NCBI GenBank assembly: GCA_026129485.1
Contig: JAHCHY010000014.1
Coordinates: 15,445 to 79,444, forward strand
Length of the DNA: 64,000 bases
Reading direction: 5' to 3'
DNA from: Cyclobacteriaceae bacterium
Lineage (GTDB): Bacteria; Bacteroidota; Bacteroidia; Cytophagales; Cyclobacteriaceae
In this document: positions 22,694-47,757 of the stretch, one piece after another
Numbering within the stretch: position 1 is the stretch's first letter
Layout of the letters: every line of letters starts with the position of its first letter
Translations under genes and position numbers: made by a program
Notes under the pieces: model-generated
Told to the model about the DNA's origin: nothing
Seen by the model: the letters and a program-made list of their open reading frames with translations, nothing else
Databases searched by the model: none

Positions 22694-23311
22694 ATGATTG
22701 ATCCATTAGTTTTACAGCGTTACGGTGCAAAGGAAATCAACCTTCAGAAAGACGAAGTGCTTTTCCGCGAAGGCGAAGAAGCATTGAACTATTTCCAGGT
22801 GCGCTGTGGCGCCATTAAAATGATCACGAGTAGCCCGGATGGCCAGGAGCTTATCCAGGGAGTATTCAAAAGCAATGACAGTTTTGGCGAGCCGCCTTTA
22901 CTTTGCTCGTTCCCTTATCCGAGCCATGCCATCGCATTAGAGCCAACGGTTGTAATCAAGCTGTCGAAAGAAAAGTTTCTTACGCTGCTGCGCGAAAACT
23001 TTGAGATACACCTTCAACTGGATAAGGTGTTGTGTCAGCGCCTTCGCTACAAATCCATGATACTCTCTGAAATATCATTTTATGATCCGGAGCACCGCAT
23101 CATGAGCTTGCTGCAATACTTAAAAGAGGATGCAGCCAAAAACAGGAAGGAAGCAGGAGCGATTCAGCAGGAGCATACATACGAGGTGCCCTTTACCCGC
23201 CAGCAGTTAGCAGACATGAGCGGCTTAAGGGTAGAAACGGTAATCCGCACGGTGAAGAGAATGGAAGAAGAAAGGAAAGTAAAGCTGGTTGGAAGAAAAA
23301 TCACACTCTAA
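22694..23311 (+). CDS. Crp/Fnr-family transcriptional regulator
   Basis: cNMP-binding-like domain (LFREGE..G.IK..SFGE) and the HTH TRQQLADMSGLRVETVIR. Likely start MIDP at 22694; the frame is open from 22520/22535. Confidence 0.92.
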   Translation: MIDPLVLQRYGAKEINLQKDEVLFREGEEALNYFQVRCGAIKMITSSPDGQELIQGVFKSNDSFGEPPLLCSFPYPSHAIALEPTVVIKLSKEKFLTLLRENFEIHLQLDKVLCQRLRYKSMILSEISFYDPEHRIMSLLQYLKEDAAKNRKEAGAIQQEHTYEVPFTRQQLADMSGLRVETVIRTVKRMEEERKVKLVGRKITL

Positions 23312-23326
23312 ATAAAATTACCTACT

Positions 23327-23797
23327 ATGACTACAGCGAAATACCTGATTGGAGCAAGCGTGGCAGCGCTCATGCTTGCCTGCGCACCAGACAAGCCTGC
23401 AAGCATTACAGAAAAGCCCGACCTGAATAAAAGTGCCGTGGAGGCTATTACCGATCCTACAAAAGGAATAGGGGCTGTGAAAAAAGTAACCCTTAATACT
23501 CCCCTCGAACAGGATCGCATCAAGCGGGGGCTGGCTATTTATGAAATGAAATGTTTGTCCTGCCACAAGCTGGATGAAACGCGGATTGTAGGCCCGGGCT
23601 GGAAAAATATTACCAAGAACCGGAAGCCGGAGTGGATCATGAACATGATCACCAATGTGGATGTGATGCTGGATCAGGATCCGGAAGCGCAGAAGCTGCT
23701 TGAGCTTTGCCTGATGCGGATGCCGAATCAGAACGTGTCGATCGGAGATGCCCGCGATATACTTGAATTCATGCGCCAGAACGATGGCGAGAAATAG
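23327..23797 (+). CDS. Monoheme cytochrome c lipoprotein (nos-associated)
   Basis: Lipobox MLAC, heme motif CLSCH, distal Met in MRMPNQ. Confidence 0.9.
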   Translation: MTTAKYLIGASVAALMLACAPDKPASITEKPDLNKSAVEAITDPTKGIGAVKKVTLNTPLEQDRIKRGLAIYEMKCLSCHKLDETRIVGPGWKNITKNRKPEWIMNMITNVDVMLDQDPEAQKLLELCLMRMPNQNVSIGDARDILEFMRQNDGEK

Positions 23798-23818
23798 ACA
23801 GACTTAAACTATGCAGCT

Positions 23819-24364
23819 ATGAAAAAATATATTTTAATTCTTGCCGTGTTTGCCTTCGCCTGCGGCCAGCAAACAGCCACTACCGAAACAGCATCTGTTG
23901 CCGAGGCCCCGGCAGGCGGGCAATCCAATGTAAAAGATGATGACTCACAACAGGATGTTGTAAAGATTGCTGTCAGCTCGCCCGATCATACCACATTGGT
24001 TGCTGCCCTTAAAGCGGCTGAATATGTGGATGCGCTTTCCAATGCAGGCCCGTTTACGGTATTCGCGCCAACCAATGCTGCCTTTGATAAGCTCCCTGCC
24101 GGTACAGTAGAAACACTAACCAAACCAGCGAACAAAGAACAGTTGCGCACCATCCTCGAATATCATGTTTATGTAGGTGTGCTTACTGAAAATATGATCC
24201 GGGATGGTATGACGCTTAACCAGGTAAGCTTGGATAATGTAACCCTCAGCAAGAAAGACGGGAAGATCACCATTAACGGGGCCAATGTGCTGGGCTCAGC
24301 CCGTGGCTCGAATGGGATTGTCTATATAATCGACACCGTATTGCTGCCTCCCGACAAGAAATAA
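23819..24364 (+). CDS. Fasciclin (FAS1) domain lipoprotein
   Basis: Lipobox AFAC. Motifs GPFTVFAPTNAAF, ILEYHV, NGIVYIID.VLLP. Confidence 0.92.
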   Translation: MKKYILILAVFAFACGQQTATTETASVAEAPAGGQSNVKDDDSQQDVVKIAVSSPDHTTLVAALKAAEYVDALSNAGPFTVFAPTNAAFDKLPAGTVETLTKPANKEQLRTILEYHVYVGVLTENMIRDGMTLNQVSLDNVTLSKKDGKITINGANVLGSARGSNGIVYIIDTVLLPPDKK

Positions 24365-24388
24365 TCTCAACACTTTAATATTAACACT

Positions 24389-26383
24389 ATGAAAACTAAA
24401 ATAATATATCGCACGCTTACGGCATTGGTTGTACTGGCCACTGTGGTAGTGTGGCAAGGTTGCAAGCCAAAGGCCCCGGCCAGTATTTCAATGGGCGATG
24501 CCGCATCAAAGGCTTATGTGCCTCCCGGAAAATATGACGAGTTCTACAATGTAGTATCAGGCGGGTTCAACGGCCAGATGAGCATTTACGGGCTTCCGTC
24601 CGGAAGACTGTTCCGCATCATCCCGGTTTTCTCGCAGTTCCCGGAAAGCGGTTGGGGCTATAGCGAAGAAACCATACCCATGCTCAATACCTCGCATGGA
24701 TTTGTACCCTGGGACGATCTGCACCACATTGCATTATCCACTACCAAAGGCGAGCACGATGGCCGGTGGGCATTCGGCAATGCCAACAACACACCACGTG
24801 TGGCACGGGTGGATATGAAGACCTTTAAAACAGTAGAAATACTGGAGCTGCCCAATAGCGGTGGCAATCACTCATCACCCTTTATTACCGAAAATACAGA
24901 GTATGTAGTAGCGGGTACACGCTTTAGCGTGCCGGTAGGCGATAAAACCGATGTTCCGATCAGCTCGTTCAAGGAAAACTTCAAAGGTTACATTAGCTTT
25001 ATTTCGGTTGATCCTGCTGATGGCAAAATGAAGATTGCATTTCAGTTGAAAACTCCGGGTGTAAGCTTTGACCTTGCCCGCGCGGGTAAAGGAAAATCGC
25101 ACGGCTGGTTCTTTTTCTCTACCTACAATACCGAACAGGCCTATACACTTTTGGAAGTAAACGCTTCGCAAAAGGATAAAGACTTTATTATGGCGGTAAA
25201 CTGGAAAAAAGCGGAAGAATACATCAGGGCAGGAAAAGGCCAGATCACAAAAGCCAAATACGCCCACAATGTTTGGGATGAACATACACACACCGGTGTA
25301 TCTAATATTATGAATGAAGTGTTGCAGTTAGATCCTGCCGAGCTGAAAGACATTATTTATTTTATCCCTTGTCCTAAATCACCGCATGGCTGCGATACCG
25401 ACCCGACAGGCGAATACATTGTGGGTAGTGGTAAGCTGGCTGCCCTGATTCCTGTTTTCTCGTTCACAAAAATACAACAGGCTATTGCCAATAAAGATTT
25501 TGAGGGAGAGTTTGCCGGTATTCCGGTTATCAAATACGAAGCCGCTTTACATGGCGAAGTGAAGAAGCCCGGCCTGGGCCCGTTGCATACCGAGTTTGAT
25601 GCGAATGGCAATGCCTATACTTCTTTCTTCGTATCCTCCGAAATTGTGAAGTGGAATGTGCAATCGCTGGAAGTGCTGGATCGTGTGCCTACCTATTACT
25701 CAATCGGGCACCTGTCGGTACCGGGAGGCCCCACTACAAAACCGTACGGTAAATATGTAGTAGCGTACAACAAGATTACCAAAGACCGCTACCTGCCTAC
25801 AGGCCCTGAGCTGACACAATCCGCGCAGTTGTATGATATATCAGGCGACAAGATGAAGCTGATTCTTGACTTCCCGACAACCGGGGAGCCGCACTATGCC
25901 GAATCGATACCGGCTGAATTAGTGATGCCAAACTCAACCAAGATTTACAAGCTGGAGGAAAACAAACATCCTTATGCTGCATTGGGTGAAGGCCAGGCGC
26001 GGGTTGAGCGTAAAGGAAACCAGGTGCATGTGTATATGACGGCCATCCGCTCGCACCTTACTCCAGACAATATTGAAGGTGTAAAGTTAGGCGATGAAGT
26101 ATATTTCCACGTTACCAACCTCGAACAGGATTGGGATGTGCCGCATGGCTTTGCTGTAAAAGGAGCAAACAATGCGGAGATTTTGGTTATGCCGGGTGAA
26201 ACCACTACCCTTAAATGGAAGCCGCTTTCCATAGGTGTATTCCCTTTCTATTGCACAGACTTTTGCTCGGCATTGCACCAGGAAATGCAAGGGTATATCC
26301 GCGTATCGCCTGCGGGCAGCAATGTTCCTTTAAAATTTTCAACCGGTAAAATCGAAGATCAGGCCAGTGGGGCTGGTCTGTAG
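24389..26383 (+). CDS. nosZ: Sec-dependent (clade II) nitrous-oxide reductase
   Basis: All seven CuZ His motifs are present (DLHH, GNH, PHG, LHT, IGH, EPH), as is the CuA site H..C-TDF-C-SAL-H-QE-M. No twin-Arg motif. Confidence 0.97.
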   Translation: MKTKIIYRTLTALVVLATVVVWQGCKPKAPASISMGDAASKAYVPPGKYDEFYNVVSGGFNGQMSIYGLPSGRLFRIIPVFSQFPESGWGYSEETIPMLNTSHGFVPWDDLHHIALSTTKGEHDGRWAFGNANNTPRVARVDMKTFKTVEILELPNSGGNHSSPFITENTEYVVAGTRFSVPVGDKTDVPISSFKENFKGYISFISVDPADGKMKIAFQLKTPGVSFDLARAGKGKSHGWFFFSTYNTEQAYTLLEVNASQKDKDFIMAVNWKKAEEYIRAGKGQITKAKYAHNVWDEHTHTGVSNIMNEVLQLDPAELKDIIYFIPCPKSPHGCDTDPTGEYIVGSGKLAALIPVFSFTKIQQAIANKDFEGEFAGIPVIKYEAALHGEVKKPGLGPLHTEFDANGNAYTSFFVSSEIVKWNVQSLEVLDRVPTYYSIGHLSVPGGPTTKPYGKYVVAYNKITKDRYLPTGPELTQSAQLYDISGDKMKLILDFPTTGEPHYAESIPAELVMPNSTKIYKLEENKHPYAALGEGQARVERKGNQVHVYMTAIRSHLTPDNIEGVKLGDEVYFHVTNLEQDWDVPHGFAVKGANNAEILVMPGETTTLKWKPLSIGVFPFYCTDFCSALHQEMQGYIRVSPAGSNVPLKFSTGKIEDQASGAGL

Positions 26384-26479: not shown

Positions 26480-27061
26480 ATGAAAACGCTTAGACCAGTA
26501 TCCCGTTTGCTCGTAGCCCTCGCTGCCTTAATGATGATAAGCGCTTATTATGTACCGCTATGGCAAATTTTGATGTGGGCGCCACAATACCCCGAAGGGT
26601 TGGCGATGAAGATATGGATCAATACCATTACCGGTGATGTGAAGGTGATCAGCGCGCTTAACCATTACATTGGCATGAAGCACATTGATGTAGAAATGTT
26701 CCCCGAGTTCGGATACATGATCTACATTGTAGGCTTTCTGATCGGGTTTGGATTAATAACAGCAGCGCTCAATCGCAGGTTTTTGTTGTGGATGTACAGT
26801 GTTCTACTGATTGCAACGGCAACGGCAGCATTGGTTGACTTCTGGTTATGGGGTTATGATTACGGCCACAACCTCGATCCTACGGCTGCCATTAATATTC
26901 CTGGTATGTCGTACCAGCCACCCCTTATCGGAACCAAGCAGTTATTAAACTTCACGGCTTTCTCGGGGCCGGATGTGGGCGGATGGATTTTTATTATATC
27001 GGGCATCCTGGTTTTGGGAACACTGGGCTTTGAATTATACACCTCTAAGAAAAGAGTATGA
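26480..27061 (+). CDS. nosB: NosB-like membrane protein of clade II nos clusters
   Basis: About 4 TM directly after nosZ. Motifs PLW.I...APQYPEGL, IN.LNHYIGM, YDYGHNLDP. Confidence 0.75.
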   Translation: MKTLRPVSRLLVALAALMMISAYYVPLWQILMWAPQYPEGLAMKIWINTITGDVKVISALNHYIGMKHIDVEMFPEFGYMIYIVGFLIGFGLITAALNRRFLLWMYSVLLIATATAALVDFWLWGYDYGHNLDPTAAINIPGMSYQPPLIGTKQLLNFTAFSGPDVGGWIFIISGILVLGTLGFELYTSKKRV

Positions 27062-27495
27062 GATTGAGATTATTCCTATTGAGCATATTGATTGGTGGAA
27101 TGATCGGGTGCACGGCCAAACCCGAACCATTGGTATTTGGCCGTGATGCCTGCTATACCTGCAAGATGACCTTAATGGACAGAAAGTTTGGTGCGGAGCT
27201 GGTAACGCAAAAAGGCAAGGTCTACAAGTTTGACGACCTGAACTGCATGCTGAGCTTTTACAATTCCGGGTATGAAGATGTTTCTGATTTTAAGTTTATA
27301 CAGGTGGTGGATTTTGCCAATCCTGAAATGCTGATTGATGCGCACCATGCATGGTACCTGAAGTCGGATAACATTCGCACACCTATGGCCAGCGAGGTGG
27401 CTGCTTTTGAGCAGGAAGAAGCCACCCGGCAGTATAAAAAAGAGTGGAGCGGCATATTAATGAGCTGGGGAGAAGTGCAAACCCAATTCAAATAA
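27058..27495 (+). CDS. nosL: NosL copper-chaperone lipoprotein
   Basis: Lipobox MIGC. Motifs C..CKMT, KFDDLNCM, TPM. Confidence 0.88.
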   Translation: MRLRLFLLSILIGGMIGCTAKPEPLVFGRDACYTCKMTLMDRKFGAELVTQKGKVYKFDDLNCMLSFYNSGYEDVSDFKFIQVVDFANPEMLIDAHHAWYLKSDNIRTPMASEVAAFEQEEATRQYKKEWSGILMSWGEVQTQFK

Positions 27496-27514
27496 TGCTT
27501 GTGCTTTTTTGAAG

Positions 27515-28750
27515 ATGAGAACAGGGTTTGTCATAGCAATTATAATCTCTTGCCTTTCGGCTAAGGCTGCTGTTATTCCGGTGGGCTTGCAGGAGCGGGT
27601 TACCCGTATTAAAGATGCGGTTGCATTGGCAAAACCGGGCGATACATTATTAATCCGTCCGGGTGTGTACCGTGAAGGGAACATCATTCTGCAAAAGTCG
27701 CTGGTAATTTTGGGCGAAAGCTATCCCGTGCTGGATGGCGAAAATCAATATGAAATTTTCACCATTCATGCAGACGGGGTTGTTATTCAGGGTTTGAAGT
27801 TTATCAATACAGGTGTTGCCAGCATAAACGATCTGGCCGCTATCAAGCTGCTGGAGTCGAGCCGGGTTCGTATTCTGCAGAATAAGTTTGATAATACTTT
27901 TTTTGGAATCTACCTCGCTAATTCAAATCATGTGTGGATTGAAGAAAATCAATTACAGGCCGAAGCGGAAGCTGAGCACCAGATCGGTAACGGTATTCAC
28001 CTCTGGAAATGCGATCATATTACCATCCACAACAACCGCGTGGAGGGCCACCGCGATGGAATTTATTTTGAGTTTGTTACCAGCTCGTTAATTACCCATA
28101 ATCACAGCGAGGGCAATATGCGTTATGGATTGCATTTCATGTTCTCGCATAAAAATGAATACCGCAACAATACATTTAAGGATAACGGGGCAGGCGTGGC
28201 CGTTATGTACACCCGAGAAGTTACGATGGTGAACAATTCGTTCATTCATAACTGGGGACCATCCGCGTATGGCTTGTTGCTGAAAGATATACGCGACAGC
28301 TTTATTACAGGCAATTCCTTTGCAGAAAACTCTGTTGGAATATTCATGGAAGGGAGCAGCCGGAATAAAATTCAGCACAACCGGTTTAATCAGAACGGCT
28401 ATGCGCTGAAGTTACAGGCCAGTTGCGATGACAACGAAATCATTCAAAATAACTTTCAGCAAAACACGTTCGACCTCGTAACCAATGGCAGTCTCGTATT
28501 GAATAAGATCGAAGCCAATTACTGGGATCGGTATGAGGGCTATGATCTCAATAAAGATAAGACCGGAGATGTACCGTACCGGCCCATCAGCATGTATGGT
28601 ACTATTGTAGAGCGAATGCCCCAGGCTATTTTACTCTGGCGCAGCTTCCTCGTGCTTTTGTTAGACCGGGCCGAGAAAGCCATTCCGGTGCTTACACCCG
28701 AAAACTTAATAGACCCGTTACCCGCTATGCGACCGTATGATTTTAATTGA
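27515..28750 (+). CDS. nosD: Nitrous oxide reductase maturation protein NosD
   Basis: Parallel beta-helix repeats, RDGIYFEF, RYGLHFMFS, NYWD.Y.GYDL..D..GD.PY. ATG at 27515. Confidence 0.93.
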   Translation: MRTGFVIAIIISCLSAKAAVIPVGLQERVTRIKDAVALAKPGDTLLIRPGVYREGNIILQKSLVILGESYPVLDGENQYEIFTIHADGVVIQGLKFINTGVASINDLAAIKLLESSRVRILQNKFDNTFFGIYLANSNHVWIEENQLQAEAEAEHQIGNGIHLWKCDHITIHNNRVEGHRDGIYFEFVTSSLITHNHSEGNMRYGLHFMFSHKNEYRNNTFKDNGAGVAVMYTREVTMVNNSFIHNWGPSAYGLLLKDIRDSFITGNSFAENSVGIFMEGSSRNKIQHNRFNQNGYALKLQASCDDNEIIQNNFQQNTFDLVTNGSLVLNKIEANYWDRYEGYDLNKDKTGDVPYRPISMYGTIVERMPQAILLWRSFLVLLLDRAEKAIPVLTPENLIDPLPAMRPYDFN

Positions 28751-29474
28751 TAAAATATCCAAGAATTTCGGATCGCTTTCTGCGCTCAACGAGGTTTCGC
28801 TGGAATTAAAAGGCGGAAAAAGCTATGCGCTTATCGGCCCCAACGGATCGGGCAAGACTACTTTAATTAAAAGTATCCTCGGGCTTGTAGTGCCCACTTC
28901 AGGCAATATTCAATTTGAAGGCAAGAGTATTTTTAATGACTGGAAATACCGCGAGAAGATCGGCTACATGCCGCAGATCGGGCGCTACCCGGAGAATATG
29001 CGTGTGGGTCAGCTTTTCGAGATGATGAAGCACATCCGCAAGGATAAGATCAAAACTGATGAAGAGCTGATGGATGCCTTTAAGCTGTACAAGATATTCG
29101 ACAAGCGGATGCATGCGCTATCGGGCGGCACCCGGCAAAAGGTAAGCGCCTCGCTGGCTTTCCTGTTTCATGCGCCTGTGCTGATCCTCGATGAACCGAC
29201 TGCCGGGCTCGACCCTGTTTCAGTAGAAATCCTGAAAGAAAAAATCATTCGCGAAAAGCGTATGGGAAAGCTGTTGATCATCACCTCCCACATTCTGAAC
29301 GACCTGGATGAAATTGCAACCGAAGCCGTGTATTTGTTTGAAGGGCGGGTTCAATACGATAAGTCTATCGCGGCATTGAAGGGAGAAACCGGTGAATCTA
29401 AATTAAACAGGGCGATCGCTACGCTGATACGGCAACGCGAGCTGCTGGAATCAGTAACCGATGTAGAGCCATGA
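28737..29474 (+). CDS. nosF: ABC ATPase NosF
   Basis: Motifs GPNGSGKTT, LSGG, ILDEPTAGLD; lies between nosD and nosY. Confidence 0.88.
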   Translation: MILIDKISKNFGSLSALNEVSLELKGGKSYALIGPNGSGKTTLIKSILGLVVPTSGNIQFEGKSIFNDWKYREKIGYMPQIGRYPENMRVGQLFEMMKHIRKDKIKTDEELMDAFKLYKIFDKRMHALSGGTRQKVSASLAFLFHAPVLILDEPTAGLDPVSVEILKEKIIREKRMGKLLIITSHILNDLDEIATEAVYLFEGRVQYDKSIAALKGETGESKLNRAIATLIRQRELLESVTDVEP

Positions 29475-30238
29475 CCCGCATCATTAAATATGTGTTCTAC
29501 GATATACTGCGCACGCGGTTTATCATTTTTTATACGGCTTTCCTGCTGGTGTGCACGTTTGCGTTCTTCCAGCTGGACGGTGATTTTGGAAAAGTGGTGC
29601 TAAGCCTGATGAATGTAGTGCTGATGGCTGTGCCTTTGGTATGTGTGGTTTTCTCCACCATACATTTTTTTAACTCGTATGAATTTATTGAGCTGATGCT
29701 GGCGCAACCCGTTAACCGCAGGGTAATATTCTTAAGCGAGTACATAGCCGTAGCATCCTCGCTTTGCCTGGCCTACGTGGTGGGAGTGGGCTTTCCTTTT
29801 ATAATCTATGGCGCTTGGCAACCTGTTTCCACATTATTGATAACCGGCATTTTTCTTACGCTGGTGTTTGTATCGCTTGCATTCTTCTCTTCCGTTCTGA
29901 CACGCGATAAAGCCAAAGCCATTGGTATTGCCTTGTTGTTCTGGTTTTACTTTTCACTGATCTATGATGGCATCCTGCTGTGGGTGATCTATACCTTCAG
30001 CGATTACCCCTTGGAAAAGCTGACCGTAACCTTGATCGCCTTTAACCCGGTTGACCTGGCCCGTATTATTATGCTGCTTCAGTTGGATATTGCTGCGCTG
30101 ATGGGCTACACCGGTGCTTTTTATAAAGACTTTTTTGGAAGCAGCCTCGGGATCGTGTTTTCCATTTCGTTGCTGATGTTGTGGGTGCTGTGGCCGGTCA
30201 TATTCTCGATGCGCATTTTTTCAAAAAAGGATTTATGA
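29471..30238 (+). CDS. nosY: ABC permease NosY
   Basis: About 6 TM with L.AQP..R and NPVDLAR motifs; ATGA-coupled to nosF. Confidence 0.85.
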   Translation: MTRIIKYVFYDILRTRFIIFYTAFLLVCTFAFFQLDGDFGKVVLSLMNVVLMAVPLVCVVFSTIHFFNSYEFIELMLAQPVNRRVIFLSEYIAVASSLCLAYVVGVGFPFIIYGAWQPVSTLLITGIFLTLVFVSLAFFSSVLTRDKAKAIGIALLFWFYFSLIYDGILLWVIYTFSDYPLEKLTVTLIAFNPVDLARIIMLLQLDIAALMGYTGAFYKDFFGSSLGIVFSISLLMLWVLWPVIFSMRIFSKKDL

Positions 30239-30669
30239 AGTGGCTGATCTTGCTGCACGTATTAGGTGCATCGGTTTGGGTAGGAGGCCACCTGGTGCTT
30301 TCGCTTGGTTTTTTGCCGCGCGCCTTACAAACAAAAGATGTGAACGTGATCACTTCGTTCGAAAAAGGTTTTGAACGAATAGGTATACCGGCTTTGCTGG
30401 TGCAGGTTATAACCGGGCTATGGATGGCGGGTAAGTATATTCCGCCCGCGCAATGGTTTAGCCTCGCCTCGGTGCATCATCAATACCTCTGGATAAAGCT
30501 TGGCCTGCTGACGGGCACAATAATGCTGGCCATACATGCACGATTCTTCATTATTCCAAAATTGTCTGAAGAGAATCTTCCGGCTATGGCATTTCATATT
30601 GTATTGGTAACCGTGCTGGCCGTGGGGTTGGTGCTTACCGGGTTAAGCTTTAGGTACATCTATTTTTAG
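30235..30669 (+). CDS. CopD-family copper-handling membrane protein
   Basis: Start at ATG 30235, overlapping the nosY stop. LHVLGASVWVGG motif, 4 TM, conserved His residues. Confidence 0.7.
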   Translation: MKWLILLHVLGASVWVGGHLVLSLGFLPRALQTKDVNVITSFEKGFERIGIPALLVQVITGLWMAGKYIPPAQWFSLASVHHQYLWIKLGLLTGTIMLAIHARFFIIPKLSEENLPAMAFHIVLVTVLAVGLVLTGLSFRYIYF

Positions 30670-31030
30670 CCACGTATCCGGGCACAAAGTATAGCTATAA
30701 TCTTATACGTATTGGTTACACTTTATGAACCATGCGCTGTAAATACAGCGTTGTAATTAGCCAGTTTTTTGAGCTGCATAAGGCCATGCCAGTTACAGTT
30801 TGGGTTATTCCCGATCTTAAAATCATGTAAATGAGAATACTAACCAATGCGAATGGCGGTATTTCTAACCGGGCTGTTGTTTAAATTAATTCTAAATAAG
30901 ATTTAGCTTGATTTTCACAGGCAGACCTAAGTCAAAAGCTGATTCAAAGATGCTGTGCGCTACCTGAAAACAAGGGTGTGATACGTGTTCTATCTCACTT
31001 CAAAATTATTGTGCCACTCACTAAAATTAA

Positions 31031-31061: not shown

Positions 31062-31102
31062 TGCGATTCCGTAAAAAAGCGGATATCTCTAAACGTGCCA
31101 CG

Positions 31103-39459: not shown

Positions 39460-40539
39460 ATGCTTACGTTTATAATCGTATTAGGGATCGTACTGGTGCT
39501 GGCCATCCTGTATTTCATATTCAGGATCGGGAACCTGGTGGAGCTGGTAAAAGAAAAGGATGAAGATATCTCGTCTTCCAATTCCGTTCATGCCTATTTG
39601 TTCATGCTCTTTATGATTGCAGGGTTGGTCGGATTTTTCTGGTATTCCTATGCTCATTTTGATTCGTACAATTTGCCCGTTGCTTCCGAGCACGGAGAAG
39701 TAACCGATTATTTGTTCTGGGTAACCATGGCCGTAACAGTAGTGGCTTTTGTGCTGATTTTTATTGTGATGTTCTGGTTTACCTTCAAATACCGTTATGA
39801 GAAGGGAAGAAAGGCAGCGTTTTTTGCCGATGATCATAAGCTTGAAATTGCCTGGACAGTTATCCCCGCTATTGTGCTGGCATTACTGATCTTCAGCGGT
39901 CTTCGCGCCTGGAATGATATTACCGGTGAAGCCTCCAAAGATGCTGCAGTGATTGAAGTAATTGGTCAGCAGTTTTTTTGGACGGCCCGTTATCCGGGCA
40001 AGGATAACTTGCTGGGTAAGCATAACTACAAGATGATTGATGCATCCAATGAGTTTGGTTTAGACCTTTCAGAAGAGAACACCTGGGATGATTTCAAGTC
40101 AATGGAGCTACACCTTCCAAAGGGAAAAGAAGTAAAGCTGGTGATTCGTGCAAAAGATGTTTTACACATCGTGTTCCTGCCACATTTCCGCGTAAAGATG
40201 GATGCCGTGCCCGGTATGCACACTACATTCAAGTTCACGGTTACCAAGTCAACAGCTGATATGCGTTCAGAAACCGGTAACCCGAATTTTAATTACGAGA
40301 TGGCCTGTACTGAAATTTGCGGACGCAATCACTTCGCTATGCGCTTTCCGGTGTTTGTGCACGATACTGTGGAAGATTACGAAAACTGGCTGAAGTCGCA
40401 GGAAGCATGGCTAAAGCAAAACCCCGACTACCTGAAGTATGTGCCCGCAGAAAAGCGTGAAGCGGCAATAGTAAAGGCAGGAATTCCGGCCGACAGCCAG
40501 GAGGCGATTCAGGCAGCGGTAACGGTAACTTTAAATTAA
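39460..40539 (+). CDS. coxB: Cytochrome c oxidase subunit II
   Basis: LEIAWT.IP and CuA ligands H..CTEICGRNHFAM. Confidence 0.93.
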   Translation: MLTFIIVLGIVLVLAILYFIFRIGNLVELVKEKDEDISSSNSVHAYLFMLFMIAGLVGFFWYSYAHFDSYNLPVASEHGEVTDYLFWVTMAVTVVAFVLIFIVMFWFTFKYRYEKGRKAAFFADDHKLEIAWTVIPAIVLALLIFSGLRAWNDITGEASKDAAVIEVIGQQFFWTARYPGKDNLLGKHNYKMIDASNEFGLDLSEENTWDDFKSMELHLPKGKEVKLVIRAKDVLHIVFLPHFRVKMDAVPGMHTTFKFTVTKSTADMRSETGNPNFNYEMACTEICGRNHFAMRFPVFVHDTVEDYENWLKSQEAWLKQNPDYLKYVPAEKREAAIVKAGIPADSQEAIQAAVTVTLN

Positions 40540-40554: not shown

Positions 40555-42453
40555 ATGGCAACTATCGATATACATTCTCAAACAGCAACACCTCACCACG
40601 ATGACCATGCACACGAGCATGACCATCATCATGGTAACTTCTGGACTAATTATATCTTCTCAGAAGATCATAAAGTAATTGCAAAACAGTTCCTGATTAC
40701 AGGTATGGCCTGGGCCTTGATCGGAGGCACGCTTTCCGTACTGTTCCGTCTTCAATTAGGTTTCCCGGATGCTGACTTATCATGGCTTAAGCCTGTTTTA
40801 GGCGGCTGGTTAACTCCCGAAGGTAAGATTGACCCGGAATTCTTCCTGGCTTTGGTAACCATGCACGGAACCATCATGGTGTTTTTCGTGCTTACGGCAG
40901 GCTTGAGCGGTACGTTCAGTAACTTCCTTATTCCGTTGCAGATTGGCGCGCGCGACATGGCCAGCGGATTTATGAACATGTTGTCCTACTGGTTCTTCTT
41001 CCTTTCGAGCGTGATCATGTTTATCTCTTTATTTATCTCTACCGGCCCTGCATCCGGTGGGTGGGTAATTTATCCGCCTTTAAGTGCATTGCCGCAGGCT
41101 ATGCAAGGTTCAGGATTGGGGATGACGTTGTGGCTGGTGGCCATGGCGATCTTCATTGCGAGCTCGTTGCTGGGAAGCATTAACTACATTAGTACCGTAA
41201 TCAACATGCGTACACAAGGCATGTCGTTTACCAAACTCCCGCTTACAATATGGGCATTCTTCTTCACCGCTATCATTGGTATATTATCATTCCCGGTATT
41301 GTTTGCAGCAGCTCTGTTGTTAATCTTTGACAGAAGCTTCGGTACGAGCTTCTACCTGTCGGATATTTATATTGGAGGTGAAGCATTACCCAATCAAGGC
41401 GGAAGTCCGATATTGTTCCAGCACCTGTTCTGGTTCCTGGGGCACCCCGAAGTGTACATTGTGTTGCTGCCTGCATTGGGTATAACATCAGAAATTATTG
41501 CCACCAATTCGCGTAAGCCGATCTTTGGCTATAAGGCGATGGTGGGCTCCATGCTGTTCATTGCCATTCTGTCGTTCGTGGTGTGGGCGCACCACATGTT
41601 TGTAACGGGTATGAACCCCTTCCTTGGATCTATCTTTACCTTGTTAACGCTGATTATTGCAGTACCTTCTGCTGTTAAGATTTTCAATTATGTAACTACC
41701 CTTTGGAAAGGGAACATCCGGTTTACATCGGCTATGCTGTTCTCCATCGGTCTGGTATCATTCTTCTTAACGGGTGGTATTACCGGTATTTTCCTCGGTA
41801 ACTCTGCTATCGATATTCAGCTGCACGACACATACTTTGTGGTAGCGCACTTTCACTTAGTAATGGGCAGCGCATCATTCTTCGGCATGGTGGCGGGTGT
41901 GTATCACTGGTTCCCGAAAATGTTCGGGCGAATGATGGATGAGCGCCTGGGTTATATTCACTTCTGGCTGACTTTTGTAGGTGTGTACATGGTATTCTTC
42001 CCTATGCACTACATCGGTATTGCAGGTTTCCCTCGTAGATATTACAGTTGGACAGACTTTCAGGTATTTGAAGGTTTTGCTGACCTGAATATGTTGGTGA
42101 GCACGGCTGCTATTTTTACACTCTGTGCGCAGTTTATTTTCCTGTTTAATTTTATCTACAGTGTTTTCAGAGGCAAAGTTGCTCCGGCAAACCCCTGGGG
42201 CTCCACTACGCTGGAATGGACTACACCGCGTAATCCCGGCCACGGTAACTGGCCCGGTGAAATACCAGCGGTTTATCGCTGGCCGTACGATTACAGCAAG
42301 CCGGGCGCGAAAGAGGATTTTATACCGCAGCATATACCTTATTCCGAAACACCTGAGTCAAATCTTCCGCATGAGAACGAGCTCATTAAGCTGGAGCTGA
42401 ACAACGGATCCATCAACATAGAAGGTAAAGAAGGTAAGGACGACAAACATTAA
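40555..42453 (+). CDS. coxA: Cytochrome c oxidase subunit I (A1-type heme-copper oxidase)
   Basis: Motifs MHGT, WFLGHPEVY, WAHH, HDTYFVVAHFH. Confidence 0.96.
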   Translation: MATIDIHSQTATPHHDDHAHEHDHHHGNFWTNYIFSEDHKVIAKQFLITGMAWALIGGTLSVLFRLQLGFPDADLSWLKPVLGGWLTPEGKIDPEFFLALVTMHGTIMVFFVLTAGLSGTFSNFLIPLQIGARDMASGFMNMLSYWFFFLSSVIMFISLFISTGPASGGWVIYPPLSALPQAMQGSGLGMTLWLVAMAIFIASSLLGSINYISTVINMRTQGMSFTKLPLTIWAFFFTAIIGILSFPVLFAAALLLIFDRSFGTSFYLSDIYIGGEALPNQGGSPILFQHLFWFLGHPEVYIVLLPALGITSEIIATNSRKPIFGYKAMVGSMLFIAILSFVVWAHHMFVTGMNPFLGSIFTLLTLIIAVPSAVKIFNYVTTLWKGNIRFTSAMLFSIGLVSFFLTGGITGIFLGNSAIDIQLHDTYFVVAHFHLVMGSASFFGMVAGVYHWFPKMFGRMMDERLGYIHFWLTFVGVYMVFFPMHYIGIAGFPRRYYSWTDFQVFEGFADLNMLVSTAAIFTLCAQFIFLFNFIYSVFRGKVAPANPWGSTTLEWTTPRNPGHGNWPGEIPAVYRWPYDYSKPGAKEDFIPQHIPYSETPESNLPHENELIKLELNNGSINIEGKEGKDDKH

Positions 42454-42465: not shown

Positions 42466-43476
42466 TTGATCAGTACAGCGACCAGTCGTTTTCACAGGCT
42501 TTGCCTGGTAACACTGGTGGCTGTTTATTTTTTGATCCTGGTAGGGGGCATTGTAAGGAGTACCGGTTCCGGAATGGGGTGCCCCGATTGGCCAAGGTGC
42601 TTTGGCTCGTGGGTGCCGCCCACATCAGCCGATCAGCTGCCTGCTGATTACAAAGAAAAATTTGCAGCATTTCGCGACAAGAAGAACCAGAAGTTTGCGT
42701 GGTACCTGCAGGTTTTTGGATTTGAATCTACAGCCAACGCAATTCTGAATGACAAATCCATACTGGTTGAAGCCGATTTTAATGTAGCCAAAACCTGGAT
42801 TGAGTATGTAAACCGTATTGTAGGGGTAACAATCGGCCTGTTGATTATAGCCGTTTTTATACAGAGCTTCATGCTCCGTAAAACAAACAAATCCTGGTTC
42901 TGGATTGCATTCGCAACCCTGGTTACGGTAATTATACAAGGATGGTTTGGCTCTATTGTAGTATCCACCAACCTTACCTCGTGGACCATAACACTGCACA
43001 TGCTGCTGGCTTTTGTGCTGGTAGGGCTGTTAATCTGGTTGTTTGTGCGCAGCGGTGAAACGATTGAGCTGGCCACCGGGAAGTACACTCGCCTGATGCT
43101 GCTTTTTTGCATGCTGCTCCTGATCATACAGGTATTGCTGGGTACCGAAGTTCGTGCGGCCATCGATCGTGCTGCTAATTTACTTTTACCCCGAACAAGC
43201 TGGATTTCGGAAACCGGTGAGGCTTTTTTAATACACCGTTCGTTTTCATGGGTATTGGTATTTTTTCACGCCATCCTGGCTTACAGATTATTCAAAACAA
43301 CACCCTTCAATTCTTTAACAGTTGCCCTTGTTCTGCTAATTTTGCTCACCCTGATTACAGGTGCGGGCATGGCGTATTTTGCTGTTCCGGCCTTTCTTCA
43401 GCCCATACATTTGCTGGTGGCCACAGTAACCTTCGGTATCCAGTTTTTGTTGTTTTTAAGACTAAAAACGATTTGA
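42466..43476 (+). CDS. ctaA: Heme A synthase (COX15/CtaA)
   Basis: GMGCPDWPRC, EY.NR, and His-containing helices (TLHM, IHRS, PIHL). TTG start. Confidence 0.88.
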   Translation: MISTATSRFHRLCLVTLVAVYFLILVGGIVRSTGSGMGCPDWPRCFGSWVPPTSADQLPADYKEKFAAFRDKKNQKFAWYLQVFGFESTANAILNDKSILVEADFNVAKTWIEYVNRIVGVTIGLLIIAVFIQSFMLRKTNKSWFWIAFATLVTVIIQGWFGSIVVSTNLTSWTITLHMLLAFVLVGLLIWLFVRSGETIELATGKYTRLMLLFCMLLLIIQVLLGTEVRAAIDRAANLLLPRTSWISETGEAFLIHRSFSWVLVFFHAILAYRLFKTTPFNSLTVALVLLILLTLITGAGMAYFAVPAFLQPIHLLVATVTFGIQFLLFLRLKTI

Positions 43477-44367
43477 ATGGCACAACCTGTTAATACAGCT
43501 GCAACGCACACCGGATCGAAAATCCGGGCCTGTATGGAATTGCTGAAAGTGAGGCTGTCTTTATTGGTAGCGTTTTCCTGTGCCTTCGGGTATGGCCTTG
43601 CCACACGCGGAAATATGGACTGGCAGGTGCTGCTTATGTTAACATTAGGCGGGTTTTTGCTTTCAGGGGCATCTGCAGGCATTAACCAGATACTTGAAAA
43701 AGATCTGGATGCCCTGATGACCCGCACGCGCAACAGACCTTTGCCAACAGCACGACTCAGCGTAAGCGAAGCAACCGTTTTCACGTTAATCTGTATGGCT
43801 GTAAGCCTGGTTATCCTGTGGATTTACACAAACCCGCTTACGGTAGCGCTTTCCATTGTTTCCATGCTGTTATACAGCTTCGTTTACACGCCTTTAAAGC
43901 AGGTAGGGCCGGTTGCCGTTTTTGTGGGCGCCATTCCGGGGGCCTTTCCTCCGCTGCTGGGCTGGATTGCGGCAACGGGTTCAGTTACCTATGAAGCCAT
44001 TATCATATTCGGGATTCAGTTTGTGTGGCAGTTTCCGCATTTCTGGGCTATTGCCTGGGTGGCTGATGATGACTATAAAAAGGCCGGGTTTAAGCTTTTG
44101 CCTTCCGGAGGCGGAAAGGATTTGAATACAGCCATCCAGATTATGGTGTACACGCTGTTCCTGATTCCGTTGGGCCTGTTGCCCGCTACGTTTGGCATTA
44201 CCGGAATTTATTCTGCCGTGGTGGCCACACTCTGCGGAGCAGCTTTTTTCGGGCAAACTTTTTCGCTGATGAAAACAGGCAGCAGGCAGTCTGCCTTGCG
44301 TATCATGTTTGGGTCATTTATTTATTTGCCGGTAGTGCAGATCGCATATTTGTTAGATAAAATTTAG
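43477..44367 (+). CDS. ctaB: Heme O synthase (protoheme IX farnesyltransferase)
   Basis: Motifs NQILEKDLDALM.RT.NRPL, YTPLK, WQFPHFWAIAW..DDY. Confidence 0.93.
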   Translation: MAQPVNTAATHTGSKIRACMELLKVRLSLLVAFSCAFGYGLATRGNMDWQVLLMLTLGGFLLSGASAGINQILEKDLDALMTRTRNRPLPTARLSVSEATVFTLICMAVSLVILWIYTNPLTVALSIVSMLLYSFVYTPLKQVGPVAVFVGAIPGAFPPLLGWIAATGSVTYEAIIIFGIQFVWQFPHFWAIAWVADDDYKKAGFKLLPSGGGKDLNTAIQIMVYTLFLIPLGLLPATFGITGIYSAVVATLCGAAFFGQTFSLMKTGSRQSALRIMFGSFIYLPVVQIAYLLDKI

Positions 44368-44967
44368 ATGAGGATGGAGAAGACTACAACCGGGGAATTC
44401 AGGATAGTAGAAGAGCCCGGAAAGCCGTTGGCTATGGAGCCCAGGAAATTTTCCATGTGGCTCTTTATCGGCAGCGTGTTCATGCTGTTTGCAGCGTTAA
44501 CCTCTGCTTACATAGTGCGGGAAGCAGAAGGCAACTGGGTGTATTTTGAAATGCCCGGTGTGTTCACGATTTCAACGGTAATAATTTTGGTTAGTAGTAT
44601 TACCATGCAATGGGCATATTGGTCAGCCAAGAAAGATAATCTTGAAAATATAAAAATCCTGGTAGCTGTAACGGCTGTGCTGGGCTTTGCTTTTTTGATT
44701 TTGCAATGGCAGGGTTGGGTAGAATTGGTAGCGAGTAAGATTTATTTTGTGGGAAACCCTTCGGGGTCTTTCCTGTATGTACTTACAGGAGTTCATGCCA
44801 TTCATATCATCAGCGCCATAGTTTTTCTGCTGATTGTCCTGGTGGCTGCTTACCGTTATAAAGTCCACTCCAAAAACATGGTAAGCATGGAAATGTGCAC
44901 CACTTATTGGCATTTTTTGGGCGGACTTTGGCTATATTTGTTCGTATTTCTATTATTGTACCGATAA
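44368..44967 (+). CDS. Cytochrome c oxidase subunit III-like (first of the split pair)
   Basis: Motifs F.ALTSAY, G.HAIH, YWHFL..LW. Confidence 0.85.
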   Translation: MRMEKTTTGEFRIVEEPGKPLAMEPRKFSMWLFIGSVFMLFAALTSAYIVREAEGNWVYFEMPGVFTISTVIILVSSITMQWAYWSAKKDNLENIKILVAVTAVLGFAFLILQWQGWVELVASKIYFVGNPSGSFLYVLTGVHAIHIISAIVFLLIVLVAAYRYKVHSKNMVSMEMCTTYWHFLGGLWLYLFVFLLLYR

Positions 44968-44983
44968 ACCCTAATACCTGATT

Positions 44984-45751
44984 ATGGCACATAGTACAGC
45001 CACTGCAGTATCCGGAAAGAGCGTTTGGGATGGCGGGGATTCGCCCATGAACGCCAGCTACGGCAAGCTCATGATGTGGTTCTTCCTGCTTTCGGATGCA
45101 TTTACGTTCTCCGGGTTGCTGATTACCTACGGATTGGTTCGTTCATCCCACCAGGCGTATGAGGGCTTAGTTAAAGATTTTACGTTCTCTACTGAATATT
45201 GGCCGATACCGGAAAAAGTATTTGAAGCGGTTCCGTTCCTGCATGGCTACGAGCTGCCGCTTGTGTTTGTAGGTATTATGACCTTCATCCTTATCATGAG
45301 CTCGGTAACCATGGTGCTGGCTGTTGAGGCGGGGCACAGGATGGATCGCAAAGCCGTAGAAAAATGGATGTTGTGGACTATTGTCGGTGGGCTTACCTTT
45401 TTGGGTTGCCAGGCTTGGGAGTGGACTCACTTTATTGTGGGTACCGATACACCAACGATCGTTAAGGATTTTGTAAATGGCCAGTGGATCACGAAAGAAG
45501 TAACCGGGGCGAATCTGCATATCAACCAGTATGGCCCACAGCCGTTCGCAGACTTCTTCTTCTTTATTACAGGCTTCCACGGCTTCCACGTGTTTAGCGG
45601 GGTGCTGTTGAACTTCCTTATTTATTACAATACGGTAACAGGCGTGTATGAGCGCAGAGGCCATTATGAGATGGTTGAGAAAGTTGGCTTGTACTGGCAC
45701 TTTGTAGACCTGGTTTGGGTATTTGTATTTACTTTCTTCTATTTAGTTTAA
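44984..45751 (+). CDS. Cytochrome c oxidase subunit III-like (second of the split pair)
   Basis: Motifs MWFFLLSDAFTF, TGFHGFHV, YWHFVDLVW. Confidence 0.88.
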   Translation: MAHSTATAVSGKSVWDGGDSPMNASYGKLMMWFFLLSDAFTFSGLLITYGLVRSSHQAYEGLVKDFTFSTEYWPIPEKVFEAVPFLHGYELPLVFVGIMTFILIMSSVTMVLAVEAGHRMDRKAVEKWMLWTIVGGLTFLGCQAWEWTHFIVGTDTPTIVKDFVNGQWITKEVTGANLHINQYGPQPFADFFFFITGFHGFHVFSGVLLNFLIYYNTVTGVYERRGHYEMVEKVGLYWHFVDLVWVFVFTFFYLV

Positions 45752-45764
45752 ACATCTTTCGAAT

Positions 45765-46088
45765 ATGGCACATCATGCGCATGAACCAGAAGTAACGGTA
45801 CTTCCCCCGGATAAGGAGAAAATTAAAAAGCTGTGGACGGTAGCAGGTATTTTAGGTATCGTAACTGCGATTGAGTTCATATTCGCATTTACGATGGCTG
45901 CAGGAACATTAAGAACCTCGATTTTCGTGGCCCTGACTATTGTTAAAGCTGCCTACATAGTAGGGGAGTTTATGCACCTTCGTTATGAAACCAAAGTTTT
46001 GTTCTGGTCAATTCTTATCCCGGTAATTTTTATTGTCTGGATGCTGGTGGCCTTCGTATACGAAGGTATCAACATGCCGGTGTTTTAA
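45765..46088 (+). CDS. Cytochrome c oxidase subunit IV family protein
   Basis: 3 TM with KA.YI..EFMHL..E. Confidence 0.85.
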   Translation: MAHHAHEPEVTVLPPDKEKIKKLWTVAGILGIVTAIEFIFAFTMAAGTLRTSIFVALTIVKAAYIVGEFMHLRYETKVLFWSILIPVIFIVWMLVAFVYEGINMPVF

Positions 46089-46113
46089 TAATTGTAGCTG
46101 TTAAATGAAATTG

Positions 46114-46149
46114 AGAAGGCTAAAGTGTCGAACTTTAGCCTTCTTTTTA
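46114..46149 (+). terminator. Intrinsic terminator after the cox genes
   Basis: AGAAGGCTAAAGT/ACTTTAGCCTTCT 13-bp stem plus a T run. Confidence 0.85.
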
Positions 46150-46162
46150 TGTTATCCGATTG

Positions 46163-46636
46163 ATGTCGAAAAAGTTTACCTATCTCTTTTTAGCATTGCT
46201 TCTGCCCGGGCTTATTTTCGCGTTTCTGCGTAAGTTCGGTAAAAACGAATTCAATATACCGGTGTATTATGAAACAGGAGTGGATGATGTCCCCGGTAGT
46301 TGCGGCAGCTATCCGATCCCTTACCTTGTGCCGGACTCTGTGATGCAGATTATGAATACCGAGAATAAGCCTGTTTTGTTTGTTACGGATTCGTCACTTG
46401 TGGTGAAAAAGAATTTGGATAGGTTGAAATCCGAATTAAAGGAATCATTTACAGTTGTATGGGCCGATCCTGACAGGCATGAACGCTGGCCTGATTGCGT
46501 TTTCTTGCTGCAGAAGCCGTGGACTGCCGCATTGGTCGACACGCAAGGACAGATCAGGGGATATTATACCCCGGTAACGCGGGAGGAAGCGGATAGGTTA
46601 ACGGTCGAGTTACGTATTTTATTAAAGCAATATTAA
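46163..46636 (+). CDS. SCO-like membrane-anchored protein lacking the CxxxC motif
   Basis: The N-terminal TM and FGKNEF.IPVY plus the C-terminal ALVD..G.IRG.Y..E..RL..E..IL resemble Bacteroidota SCO proteins. No CxxxC is present. Confidence 0.5.
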   Translation: MSKKFTYLFLALLLPGLIFAFLRKFGKNEFNIPVYYETGVDDVPGSCGSYPIPYLVPDSVMQIMNTENKPVLFVTDSSLVVKKNLDRLKSELKESFTVVWADPDRHERWPDCVFLLQKPWTAALVDTQGQIRGYYTPVTREEADRLTVELRILLKQY

Positions 46637-46638
46637 AT

Positions 46639-47160
46639 ATGACTGAAGCTGCAAAGTCTCCGTATCATAAGTTAATCGTTACACTTTCAATCGTGTTGCC
46701 TGTTGCCGTAGCGGCATTGTTCAGAATCAGGATACCGGGATATGATTTTAGCTTCCTGCCACCGATTTATGCTACAACCAATGGAATTACAGCCGTGCTG
46801 CTGGTAGCAGCCGTAATTGCCATTAAAAAACGAAAGCGAAAGCTGCATGAAGCGCTTATAAAAATCTGTATGAGCTTATCCGCAGCTTTCCTGGTCATGT
46901 ATGTCTTGTATCACATGACCAGCGATTCTACGGCTTACGGTGGGGAAGGCGGCTGGAAGATATTTTATTATGTGATCCTGATCAGTCATATCATTTTATC
47001 GGTTGTGGTGGTTCCGTTTGTTTTGTTCACCTTCTCAAGGGCGTTATCCGGTAATTTTGAAAGACATAAGGCGTTAGCTAAATTTACTTTTCCATTGTGG
47101 TTGTATGTAGCCATAACCGGGGTTATCGTTTACATCATGATTAGTCCGTATTACACGTAG
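46639..47160 (+). CDS. DUF420 membrane protein
   Basis: H..LI, FLVMYVLYH, HK.LAK.T.P.WLYVAITG; usual cox-cluster neighbour. Confidence 0.88.
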   Translation: MTEAAKSPYHKLIVTLSIVLPVAVAALFRIRIPGYDFSFLPPIYATTNGITAVLLVAAVIAIKKRKRKLHEALIKICMSLSAAFLVMYVLYHMTSDSTAYGGEGGWKIFYYVILISHIILSVVVVPFVLFTFSRALSGNFERHKALAKFTFPLWLYVAITGVIVYIMISPYYT

Positions 47161-47165
47161 GCATT

Positions 47166-47414
47166 ATGAACAGGATTGTGAGATTGGTGGTAATAACATT
47201 GTTCTTTGTGCTGGTTCAGCTACCAGCCCGGGCACAGTGCGCCATGTGCAGGACCACCCTGGAAAACAACGTAAGTAACGGAGATATCGGAATAGCGGCA
47301 GGAATCAACTTTGGAATTTTATACCTGTTTGCGGCCCCTTACCTGATCATTTCCCTGATTGCCTTCTTTTGGTACCGAACCAGTAAAAATGCCAGGCGAA
47401 ACGAATACGCTTAG
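47166..47414 (+). CDS. Small exported/membrane protein with an AQCAMC motif
   Basis: Signal peptide, then QCAMCR..LE, G.N.GILYL and a TM. Confidence 0.7.
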   Translation: MNRIVRLVVITLFFVLVQLPARAQCAMCRTTLENNVSNGDIGIAAGINFGILYLFAAPYLIISLIAFFWYRTSKNARRNEYA

Positions 47415-47757
47415 CAGCATCTGGCATGCCAGGTGCCCGCGTTGCCGCAAGGGCAATATTTTTAAGCATCGGCTGGTGCAGTTTACGCGATTTGCTGCCA
47501 TGAATTCCGAATGCCCGGTTTGCAAGGCATCATTTAATCCCGAGCCGGGCTTTTATTTCGGAGCCATGTTTGTAAGCTATGCGTTTACAGTTGCGATAAT
47601 GGTGGCCGTGTGGCTGGCGCTTTATGTATTGGCCGATCCTGCCGATTGGATTTACGGCATCGGATTGGTAGTAGGTGCAGTCGTGTTTTCTCCGCTTAGC
47701 TTCCGGCTTTCGCGCGTGCTGTGGCTTTACTGGTTTGGTGGCCATAAAGCTGCGTAA
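47389..47757 (+). CDS. DUF983 family protein (zinc ribbon plus 2 TM)
   Basis: Motifs CPRC..G, CPVC, EPGFYFGAM.VSY. Confidence 0.82.
   Translation: MPGETNTLSSIWHARCPRCRKGNIFKHRLVQFTRFAAMNSECPVCKASFNPEPGFYFGAMFVSYAFTVAIMVAVWLALYVLADPADWIYGIGLVVGAVVFSPLSFRLSRVLWLYWFGGHKAA

Follow-up and report, generated by a model that had tools for sequence, protein, structure and literature searches.

We analysed a 64,000-nt stretch of DNA from a Cyclobacteriaceae bacterium (GenBank assembly GCA_026129485.1, contig JAHCHY010000014.1, positions 15,445–79,444; hereafter, the window) that encodes a clade II nitrous oxide (N2O) reductase, NosZ, and an alternative complex III (ACIII) that probably supplies NosZ with electrons. 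The region in question, at 22520–47757 and entirely on the + strand, comprises a clade II nos operon, followed by a 433-bp gap, followed by an actABCDEF-coxBA-cta operon for ACIII and an aa3-type oxidase. Gene identities were assigned by Pfam and NCBIfam profile searches of the window proteins, and the assembly that contains the window is 4.08 Mb in size, in 40 contigs, and 98% complete. The gene calls agree with the original prediction, made from the sequence of the window, of a co-oriented block of ~25 kb in which nos and act are separated by ~430 bp: from the stop of the last nos-unit gene, encoding a CopD-like protein (30669), to the probable ActA start (31103), the gap is 433 bp. Profile annotation likewise bears out that the window contains no gene for a NosR-, NosX-, NosG-, or NosH-like protein, no Rieske or cytochrome b gene, and no nir or nor gene. 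The locus is an ordinary one, consisting of a Bacteroidota-type clade II nos cluster and a Flavobacterium-type ACIII-aa3 operon, both of already known kinds.

The nos unit opens with a gene for a Crp/Fnr-family regulator (22520–23311; cNMP_binding and HTH_Crp_2 domains, with weak matches to the CRP, FNR, and FixK NCBIfam models), followed by a gene for a monohaem class I cytochrome c that is a probable lipoprotein (23327–23797; Cytochrom_C, a single CLSCH motif, and a lipobox-like LMLAC), followed by a gene for a fasciclin-domain lipoprotein (23819–24364; PF02469, E-value 4e-32), followed by nosZ (24389–26383). The monohaem lipoprotein that the original prediction had noted ahead of nosZ is upstream of nosZ in the nos unit, but the immediate neighbour of nosZ is the fasciclin gene. 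Downstream of nosZ are: an open reading frame (ORF) at the nosB position, here called orfX (26480–27061), which encodes a 193-residue membrane protein with four transmembrane (TM) helices, is conserved, and matched no Pfam or NCBIfam model; four genes of CuZ maturation, nosL (27058–27495; Pfam NosL), nosD (27509–28750; NosD/Beta_helix), nosF (28737–29474; ABC_tran), and nosY (29471–30238; ABC2_membrane_2); and the gene for the CopD-like membrane protein, which overlaps the end of nosY (30235–30669, with the longest ORF starting at 30181; PF05425 and NF033808, both below cut-off).

For comparison, we mapped the window proteins onto 80 Bacteroidota nosZ loci with 10-kb flanks. NosZ of the window is of the Sec-dependent, clade II type: it scores above the cut-off of the Sec-type model TIGR04246 (928 bits versus 625) and below the cut-off of the twin-arginine translocation (TAT)-type model TIGR04244 (341 bits versus 625), and its N-terminus, MKTKIIYRTLTALVVLATVVVWQGC, has no RR twin-arginine motif. 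The CuA ligand motif, CTDFCSALHQEM, is present near the C-terminus, and solved clade I NosZ structures match the protein with an E-value of 1e-80. Its 664 residues contain no CxxCH motif, that is, no C-terminal monohaem cytochrome c domain. Across the 80 loci, NosZ is 74–96% identical and gene order is conserved, indicating purifying selection. Some clade II carriers, such as Gemmatimonas aurantiaca, reduce N2O without sustained anaerobic growth, and a NosZ that is inactive, or that serves as an N2O detoxifier or electron sink without growth benefit and not as a respiratory terminal enzyme, would fit that pattern. A non-respiratory or inactive NosZ is unlikely, however, and we give it only a very slight chance, in view of this selection and of the intact, conserved operon, which includes all maturation genes, a dedicated cytochrome c, a Crp/Fnr regulator, and a perfect FNR-type box.

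The best solved relatives of the nos cytochrome c are 3CP5 and 6CUK (E-value 4e-15), of which we take 3CP5 to be the Rhodothermus marinus monohaem cytochrome c that is reduced by ACIII. The nos cytochrome c also matches the N-terminal domain of ActA in 6BTM chain A (6BTM_A; E-value 7e-5) and is 31% identical to residues 52–120 of the window's own ActA. A nos-type cytochrome c gene lies directly upstream of nosZ in 71/72 loci. The nos cytochrome c has no paralogue in the genome that contains the window, and NosZ and ACIII are likewise single-copy. In one close relative (L010, 1446–1910), a further nos-type cytochrome c gene (59–66% identical) lies between galM and the crp/fnr gene. The fasciclin gene accompanies nos in 61/80 loci, at a place and on a strand that differ among them (ahead of nosZ, behind it, behind nosY, or downstream in reverse orientation), and a CopD-like gene after nosY is rare (7/80).

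The act-cox operon encodes all six core ACIII subunits, with coxBA directly after: hexahaem ActA (31037–32356, with a probable start at 31103; 6BTM_A and six CxxCH motifs); TAT-exported ActB, with molybdopterin-like and 4Fe-4S modules (32395–35505; Fer4 families, Molybdopterin, QrcB/QrcC-like, and the TAT-variant signal TIGR04519); ActC, the quinol-binding membrane subunit of the NrfD family (35539–36912; PF03916); ActD (36914–37441; PF11821, E-value 7e-64); ActE, a monohaem lipoprotein (37444–38073; 6BTM_E, E-value 1.6e-25; an LLLAGC lipobox and a single CKHCH motif); ActF (38097–39434; 6BTM_F, E-value 1e-85); CoxB, a CuA-containing subunit II without haem c (39460–40539; COX2, COX2_TM, and TIGR02866); and CoxA of an aa3-type oxidase (40555–42453; COX1). 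The remainder of the operon (within 42466–47757) comprises ctaA, ctaB, cox3, a cox3-like gene, and cox4 (COX15-CtaA, UbiA, COX3 twice, and COX4_pro), together with four small accessory ORFs (a 158-residue ORF, DUF420, an 82-residue ORF, and DUF983, where DUF420 and DUF983 are Pfam assignments).

Residues 27–439 of ActA align end to end with residues 10–444 of 6BTM chain A (E-value 1e-105), with an architecture consisting of an N-terminal monohaem mobile domain, a TM helix, and a pentahaem wire. The N-terminal monohaem domain, which the original prediction had described as extra, is present, but it is no addition: the same mobile sixth-haem domain has been described for Flavobacterium johnsoniae (PMC8552683). 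CxxCH motifs number six in ActA, one in ActE, and none in CoxB, and the absence from CoxB marks the oxidase as being of the aa3 type and not of the caa3 type. The longest ORF for ActA begins at 31037, and its 22 extra residues, MRHLACRFVRFRKKADISKRAT (31037–31102), overlap a consensus promoter. Because Met23 is followed by a signal-like sequence and homology to 6BTM_A sets in at residue 27, the probable start is at 31103. From its homology to the enzymes of F. johnsoniae and R. marinus, this ACIII is predicted to act as a menaquinol:cytochrome c oxidoreductase (PMC8552683, PMC5928083).

The two gene units differ in their upstream sequences. A perfect 22-bp FNR/CRP-type palindrome, GTTTATGATCAGGATCATAAAC, lies upstream of the nos operon at 22476–22497 and is the sole zero-mismatch match in the window. 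A match to the Bacteroidota-type promoter consensus, TTTG-N19-TAGATTTG, lies on the + strand at 31031–31061, 42 nt ahead of where ActA probably starts. The original prediction had named this site as a promoter of act's own, and nowhere else in the 64 kb of the window is TTTG-N18-21-TAnnTTTG matched in full; ~1.7 chance matches would be expected over the whole window, and a chance match at exactly the front of actA is unlikely. The nos-act gap (30670–31036) contains neither the nos-type FNR palindrome nor a relaxed TGAT-N4-ATCA box, and a genome-wide search for either form found none upstream of actA and none directly upstream of ccoNO, the gene fusion for the cbb3 oxidase. Shared regulation of nos and act was rejected because an FNR-type box is missing before actA. 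With an FNR-type box on one side and a separate promoter without such a box on the other, nos and act form, on sequence grounds, two distinct transcription units that would be under different control. A second FNR-like box, TTTGATCTTAATCATT, at 52201–52216, is the one further [AT]TGAT-N4-ATCA[AT] site that the window contains.

The short gap could nevertheless be functional, with nos and act-cox constituting one selected respiratory island that is co-transcribed or co-regulated and that possibly supports a NosZ-ACIII assembly. Consistent with such an island, the two units share a strand, are 433 bp apart, and have no terminator-like site past the CopD-like gene, and the window's layout is repeated in three loci with NosZ sequences 94–96% identical to that of the window (L008, L009, and L012). 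A fourth relative (L010, NosZ 92% identical) has a similar layout with a 4.5-kb insert between nosY and actA, and an unrelated metagenome-assembled genome (MAG; L071) has nos and act parted by two reversed genes. Beyond these loci, the layout is not kept. Among the 54 loci that have at least 3 kb beyond nosY, act genes lie downstream of nos in just five, four of the five being close relatives, and L011, in which NosZ is also 92% identical, has no act genes downstream of nos. In both of the NosZ carriers from the same genus (G310 and G378), nos and act are on different contigs (33–338 kb).

The same picture emerges from whole genomes. In 80 NosZ-positive genomes (70 genera) drawn from a sample of the phylum, the NosZ-ActD distance is less than 15 kb in one, G064, in which act comes first and nos second, with molybdenum-cofactor genes filling the interval. 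In two others (G032 and G079), nos and act are 13–16 kb apart. Several independent lineages (L071, G064, G032, and G079) have nos at no more than ~22 kb from act. In 17 closed genomes, the spacing of NosZ and ActD cannot be told apart from a uniform distribution (Kolmogorov-Smirnov p=0.20) and is compatible with chance. Proximity statistics with post-hoc thresholds (p ~0.03–0.05) were rejected as evidence, being uncorrected and derived from genomes that are not phylogenetically independent. The adjacency, an accident of gene order specific to this lineage, carries no weight as evidence of coupling. The original prediction had itself cautioned that adjacency alone is no proof of coupling, and a reading of it as a sign of coupling fails on the split in the two same-genus genomes, the low counts among loci and genomes, and the lack of a shared FNR-type box; with act having its own promoter as well, a single selected island is, in our judgement, distinctly improbable.

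In the window, galM lies directly upstream of the nos unit, and the simplest reading of the gene order is that an 8.2-kb nos module came, in one sublineage, to sit in the interval between galM and act. The nos and act flanks of both same-genus genomes, G310 and G378, have their matches dispersed over contigs of the genome that contains the window, and synteny is eroded. The one clue to the ancestral order is G378 (L092, G378:C44, 3589–9220), in which galM is 3.3 kb upstream of actA. Where the window has nos, the interval in G378 contains three opposite-strand ORFs, namely one for a cytochrome c peroxidase, one for an FAD oxidoreductase, and one of no assigned family. In G064, which also carries a cytochrome b, the act-nos interval (L093, G064:C9, 7114–11535) contains moaA, moaC/mog, moeA, MOSC, and TauE.

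In other lineages, nos adjoins other oxidase genes. A cbb3 ccoNO fusion lies 1–3 kb downstream of nos in three Cytophagales-like MAGs with NosZ sequences ~80% identical (L015, 11734–13860; L021, 8586–10718; L024, 11177–13312), and a ccoNO fusion lies ~8 kb upstream of the nos cluster in a fourth Cytophagales-like MAG, L047 (72–2201). Three MAGs labelled Chitinophagales or Chitinophagaceae carry, 2–4 kb downstream of nos, a very divergent haem-copper oxidase subunit I (L039, 17553–19445; L044, 19900–21594; L050, 18030–19709) that scores 88–97 bits against the CtaD model, versus a cut-off of 670, and that could be an atypical NO reductase.

The respiratory gene content of the genome narrows the possible sources of electrons for NosZ. 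A search for cytochrome b (PF00033), which matched eight control genomes, found no match in this genome even at an E-value of 1 or below. A genome-wide search for NapH/NosH/NosR-type proteins (Fer4_5, PF12801) found nothing except CcoG (TIGR02745, 426 bits), whose gene adjoins ccoP and the ccoNO fusion on contig 12, and the nos cluster itself encodes no iron-sulphur (FeS) protein. ActC is the sole genome-wide match to the NrfD profile, and the genome has no match to NapC/NirT/NrfH. In the absence of a bc1 complex, of NosGH or other NapH-type proteins apart from CcoG, and of NapC/NrfH, no quinol:cytochrome c oxidoreductase other than ACIII is recognisable. The original prediction had named a bc1 complex or NosGH elsewhere in the genome as a finding that would refute it, and neither was found. 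Its picture of one ACIII feeding two CuA enzymes is incomplete: the cbb3 oxidase adds a third terminal enzyme that depends on cytochrome c.

The only haem-copper enzymes in the genome (PF00115) are CoxA of the aa3 oxidase in the window and the CcoNO fusion of the cbb3 oxidase, so there is no NorB, and searches of the genome for NirS (PF02239) and NirK (TIGR02376) returned sub-threshold noise only. On gene content, the organism would be an N2O reducer that is unable to form N2O via denitrification. The presence of nosZ and the absence of nirS, nirK, and nor from a 98%-complete genome fit the proposal, made in the original prediction, of a non-denitrifying N2O consumer.

We also surveyed an even sample of the phylum comprising 401 high-quality genomes, of which 135, from 87/178 genera, encode Sec-type NosZ. 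ActD is present in 80/80 NosZ-positive genomes tested, in 376/401 (94%) genomes of the class, and NosZ is present in 0/20 ActD-negative genomes of the class. ACIII is the standard complex III of the class, and ActD is so nearly universal there that its co-occurrence with NosZ says little. Co-occurrence was rejected as evidence because it is confounded: ActD-negative genomes may simply lack cytochrome c-based respiration. A clear cytochrome b (E-value of 1e-40 or below) is present in 22/135 NosZ-positive genomes, and in 1/43 in the window's own class. A supply of electrons to NosZ by ACIII would extend to most NosZ-bearing members of the class and is not special to this window.

Since the genome lacks bc1/b6f complexes, NosGH, NapGH, NosR, NapC, and NrfH, electrons for N2O reduction most likely pass via ACIII. 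The best reading, by elimination and homology, is a plausible route from menaquinol to ACIII to the nos lipoprotein cytochrome c to NosZ. Specifically, ActC of ACIII would oxidise menaquinol; the FeS clusters of ActB and then the haem wire of ActA would carry the electrons; the electrons would exit by ActE, by the mobile sixth haem of ActA, or by both; the nos-encoded, membrane-tethered monohaem cytochrome c would take them; and this cytochrome would reduce CuA of periplasmic NosZ. For the nos cytochrome c as last carrier, the evidence is indirect but consistent, and consists of its place beside nosZ, its lack of a paralogue, and its likeness to 3CP5, to 6CUK, and to the ActA N-terminal domain. 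The same ACIII would also supply the aa3 oxidase, encoded downstream, and the cbb3 oxidase, encoded elsewhere. Energy conservation would take place at ACIII and at upstream dehydrogenases, and not at NosZ. Taken as a whole, the locus is probably an ordinary nos operon that lies beside a housekeeping ACIII-aa3 operon in one narrow lineage, with ACIII feeding NosZ via the nos cytochrome c.

Published work on ACIII bears on these steps. Sousa et al. cite the R. marinus monohaem cytochrome c (Stelter 2008) as a soluble ACIII acceptor (PMC5928083). For F. johnsoniae, Lorencik et al. (2021) report that the aa3 oxidase gets its electrons solely from ACIII (PMC8552683).

Electrons could instead reach NosZ past ACIII, through a quinol dehydrogenase that has escaped recognition, such as orfX in partnership with the cytochrome c of the nos unit, or through some different membrane protein. 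The gene orfX lies directly downstream of nosZ in 77/80 loci and belongs to a family with more than 8000 homologues; its product has four TM helices and a periplasmic beta-sheet, and its invariant motifs are APQYPEGL, NHYIGM, YGHNL, and YQPPLIG. The invariant residues of its periplasmic loops include H62 and H130 and also Met and Tyr. N2O respiration in Wolinella requires NosB (Hein et al. 2017, as cited in PMC11539149), and bacteria without any complex III that reduce N2O exist (PMC10390337). Against a redox role, the orfX sequence lacks cysteine, motifs for haem c or FeS, and histidine pairs inside TM helices. A confident AlphaFold2 model (predicted local distance difference test score 86.6) gave only weak matches to claudin/TARP-like four-TM folds in a search of the PDB and matched no redox protein, and orfX was rejected as a redox protein on this ground. 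A role in maturation or copper handling seems more likely for orfX than quinol oxidation. With a complete, canonical ACIII in this genome, as in every NosZ-positive genome tested, we regard a bypass of ACIII as rather improbable. One source calls the orfX family "copper chaperone NosL", yet the true NosL is encoded by the next gene.

Several points weigh against a supply of NosZ by ACIII from a merely neighbouring operon. We infer each electron-transfer step to NosZ by elimination and homology, and a novel quinol dehydrogenase, for which orfX is a candidate, would escape profile searches. The ~2% of the genome that may be missing from the 40-contig draft could conceal a gene. On the side of gene order, a scan of 30669–31030 found no terminator-like hairpin, so that read-through from nos into act is possible, and the independent lineages with nos near act, together with those in which nos adjoins the cbb3 operon, may reflect some loose clustering of respiratory operons.

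Within the proposed supply by ACIII, the exit point can be framed more sharply. In F. johnsoniae, loss of ActE by deletion slows growth but does not impair aa3 activity, and Lorencik et al. propose split electron paths in which ActE leads toward a "yet-unidentified" partner (PMC8552683). The nos cytochrome c and the cbb3 oxidase are candidates for this proposed partner of ActE. In a two-exit ACIII, the sixth haem of ActA would serve the docked aa3 oxidase and ActE would serve tethered cytochromes c, including that of nos; NosZ, along with cbb3, would lie at the end of the path proposed for F. johnsoniae ActE, and the branch would set the division of electrons between O2 and N2O in the very numerous Bacteroidota N2O consumers without NosGH or bc1. 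We offer this extension tentatively, as a possibility about which we have more doubt than confidence.

Full-text searches of the open literature found no paper in which ACIII is named, or put to the test, as the electron source of NosZ, although priority is uncertain, and a 2026 review still presents clade II electron supply as NosHG-based (PMC13685413). In a bacterium that lacks bc1, supply of NosZ by ACIII is what one would expect by default, and it would not surprise specialists. Bacteroidota carriers of clade II NosZ are discussed as N2O sinks, and, if ACIII is the obligatory link, both the energy yield of N2O respiration and the competition for electrons between N2O and O2 (via aa3 and cbb3) would hinge on ACIII. 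The locus brings no new component; its value is that of a clean example for a sharpened, testable hypothesis, accompanied by survey numbers.

Both halves of the locus have close counterparts. The F. johnsoniae ACIII-aa3 supercomplex (6BTM; PMC8552683) has the same subunits in the same order, actABCDEF and then coxBA, and shares with the window a hexahaem ActA with a mobile domain, a lipoprotein ActE, and a CoxB without haem c. The window differs in having a nos operon 433 bp upstream of act. The 80 Bacteroidota clade II nos loci share the order cytochrome c, nosZ, orfX, nosL, nosD, nosF, nosY, often with a Crp/Fnr regulator near; relative to these loci, the window's CopD-like gene is uncommon, and a position at the side of act is limited to the closest relatives and one unrelated MAG.

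The nos system of Wolinella succinogenes comprises NosGH, NosC1/C2, NosB, and cNosZ, as well as the Rieske/cytochrome bc complex. The window resembles it in having a Sec-type NosZ, a gene for a small membrane protein after nosZ, and a gene for a monohaem cytochrome c in the cluster, and orfX, characterised here by position, TM topology, and conservation, stands in the place of nosB. The system of the window is nevertheless not Wolinella-type: NosG and NosH, the haem c domain of cNosZ, and a cytochrome bc complex were searched for and are absent from its genome, where ACIII is the sole candidate substitute. The R. marinus ACIII, whose soluble acceptors are a high-potential iron-sulphur protein and the monohaem cytochrome c 3CP5, offers a likeness on the side of the acceptor, since this cytochrome and that of nos are members of one family (E-value 4e-15). 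The R. marinus system differs in that its ActA has no sixth-haem domain and its caa3 oxidase carries its own haem c.

In clade I systems, electrons pass from bc1 to cytochrome c550 or pseudoazurin and then to NosZ, with NosR and with TAT export of the enzyme. The window differs from these systems in Sec export, in having no NosR or NosX, in having ACIII in place of bc1, and in a carrier that is probably lipid-anchored. The overall arrangement proposed here is nonetheless the clade I arrangement, in which a complex III-type enzyme would reduce a small periplasmic carrier, and the carrier would reduce CuA of NosZ.

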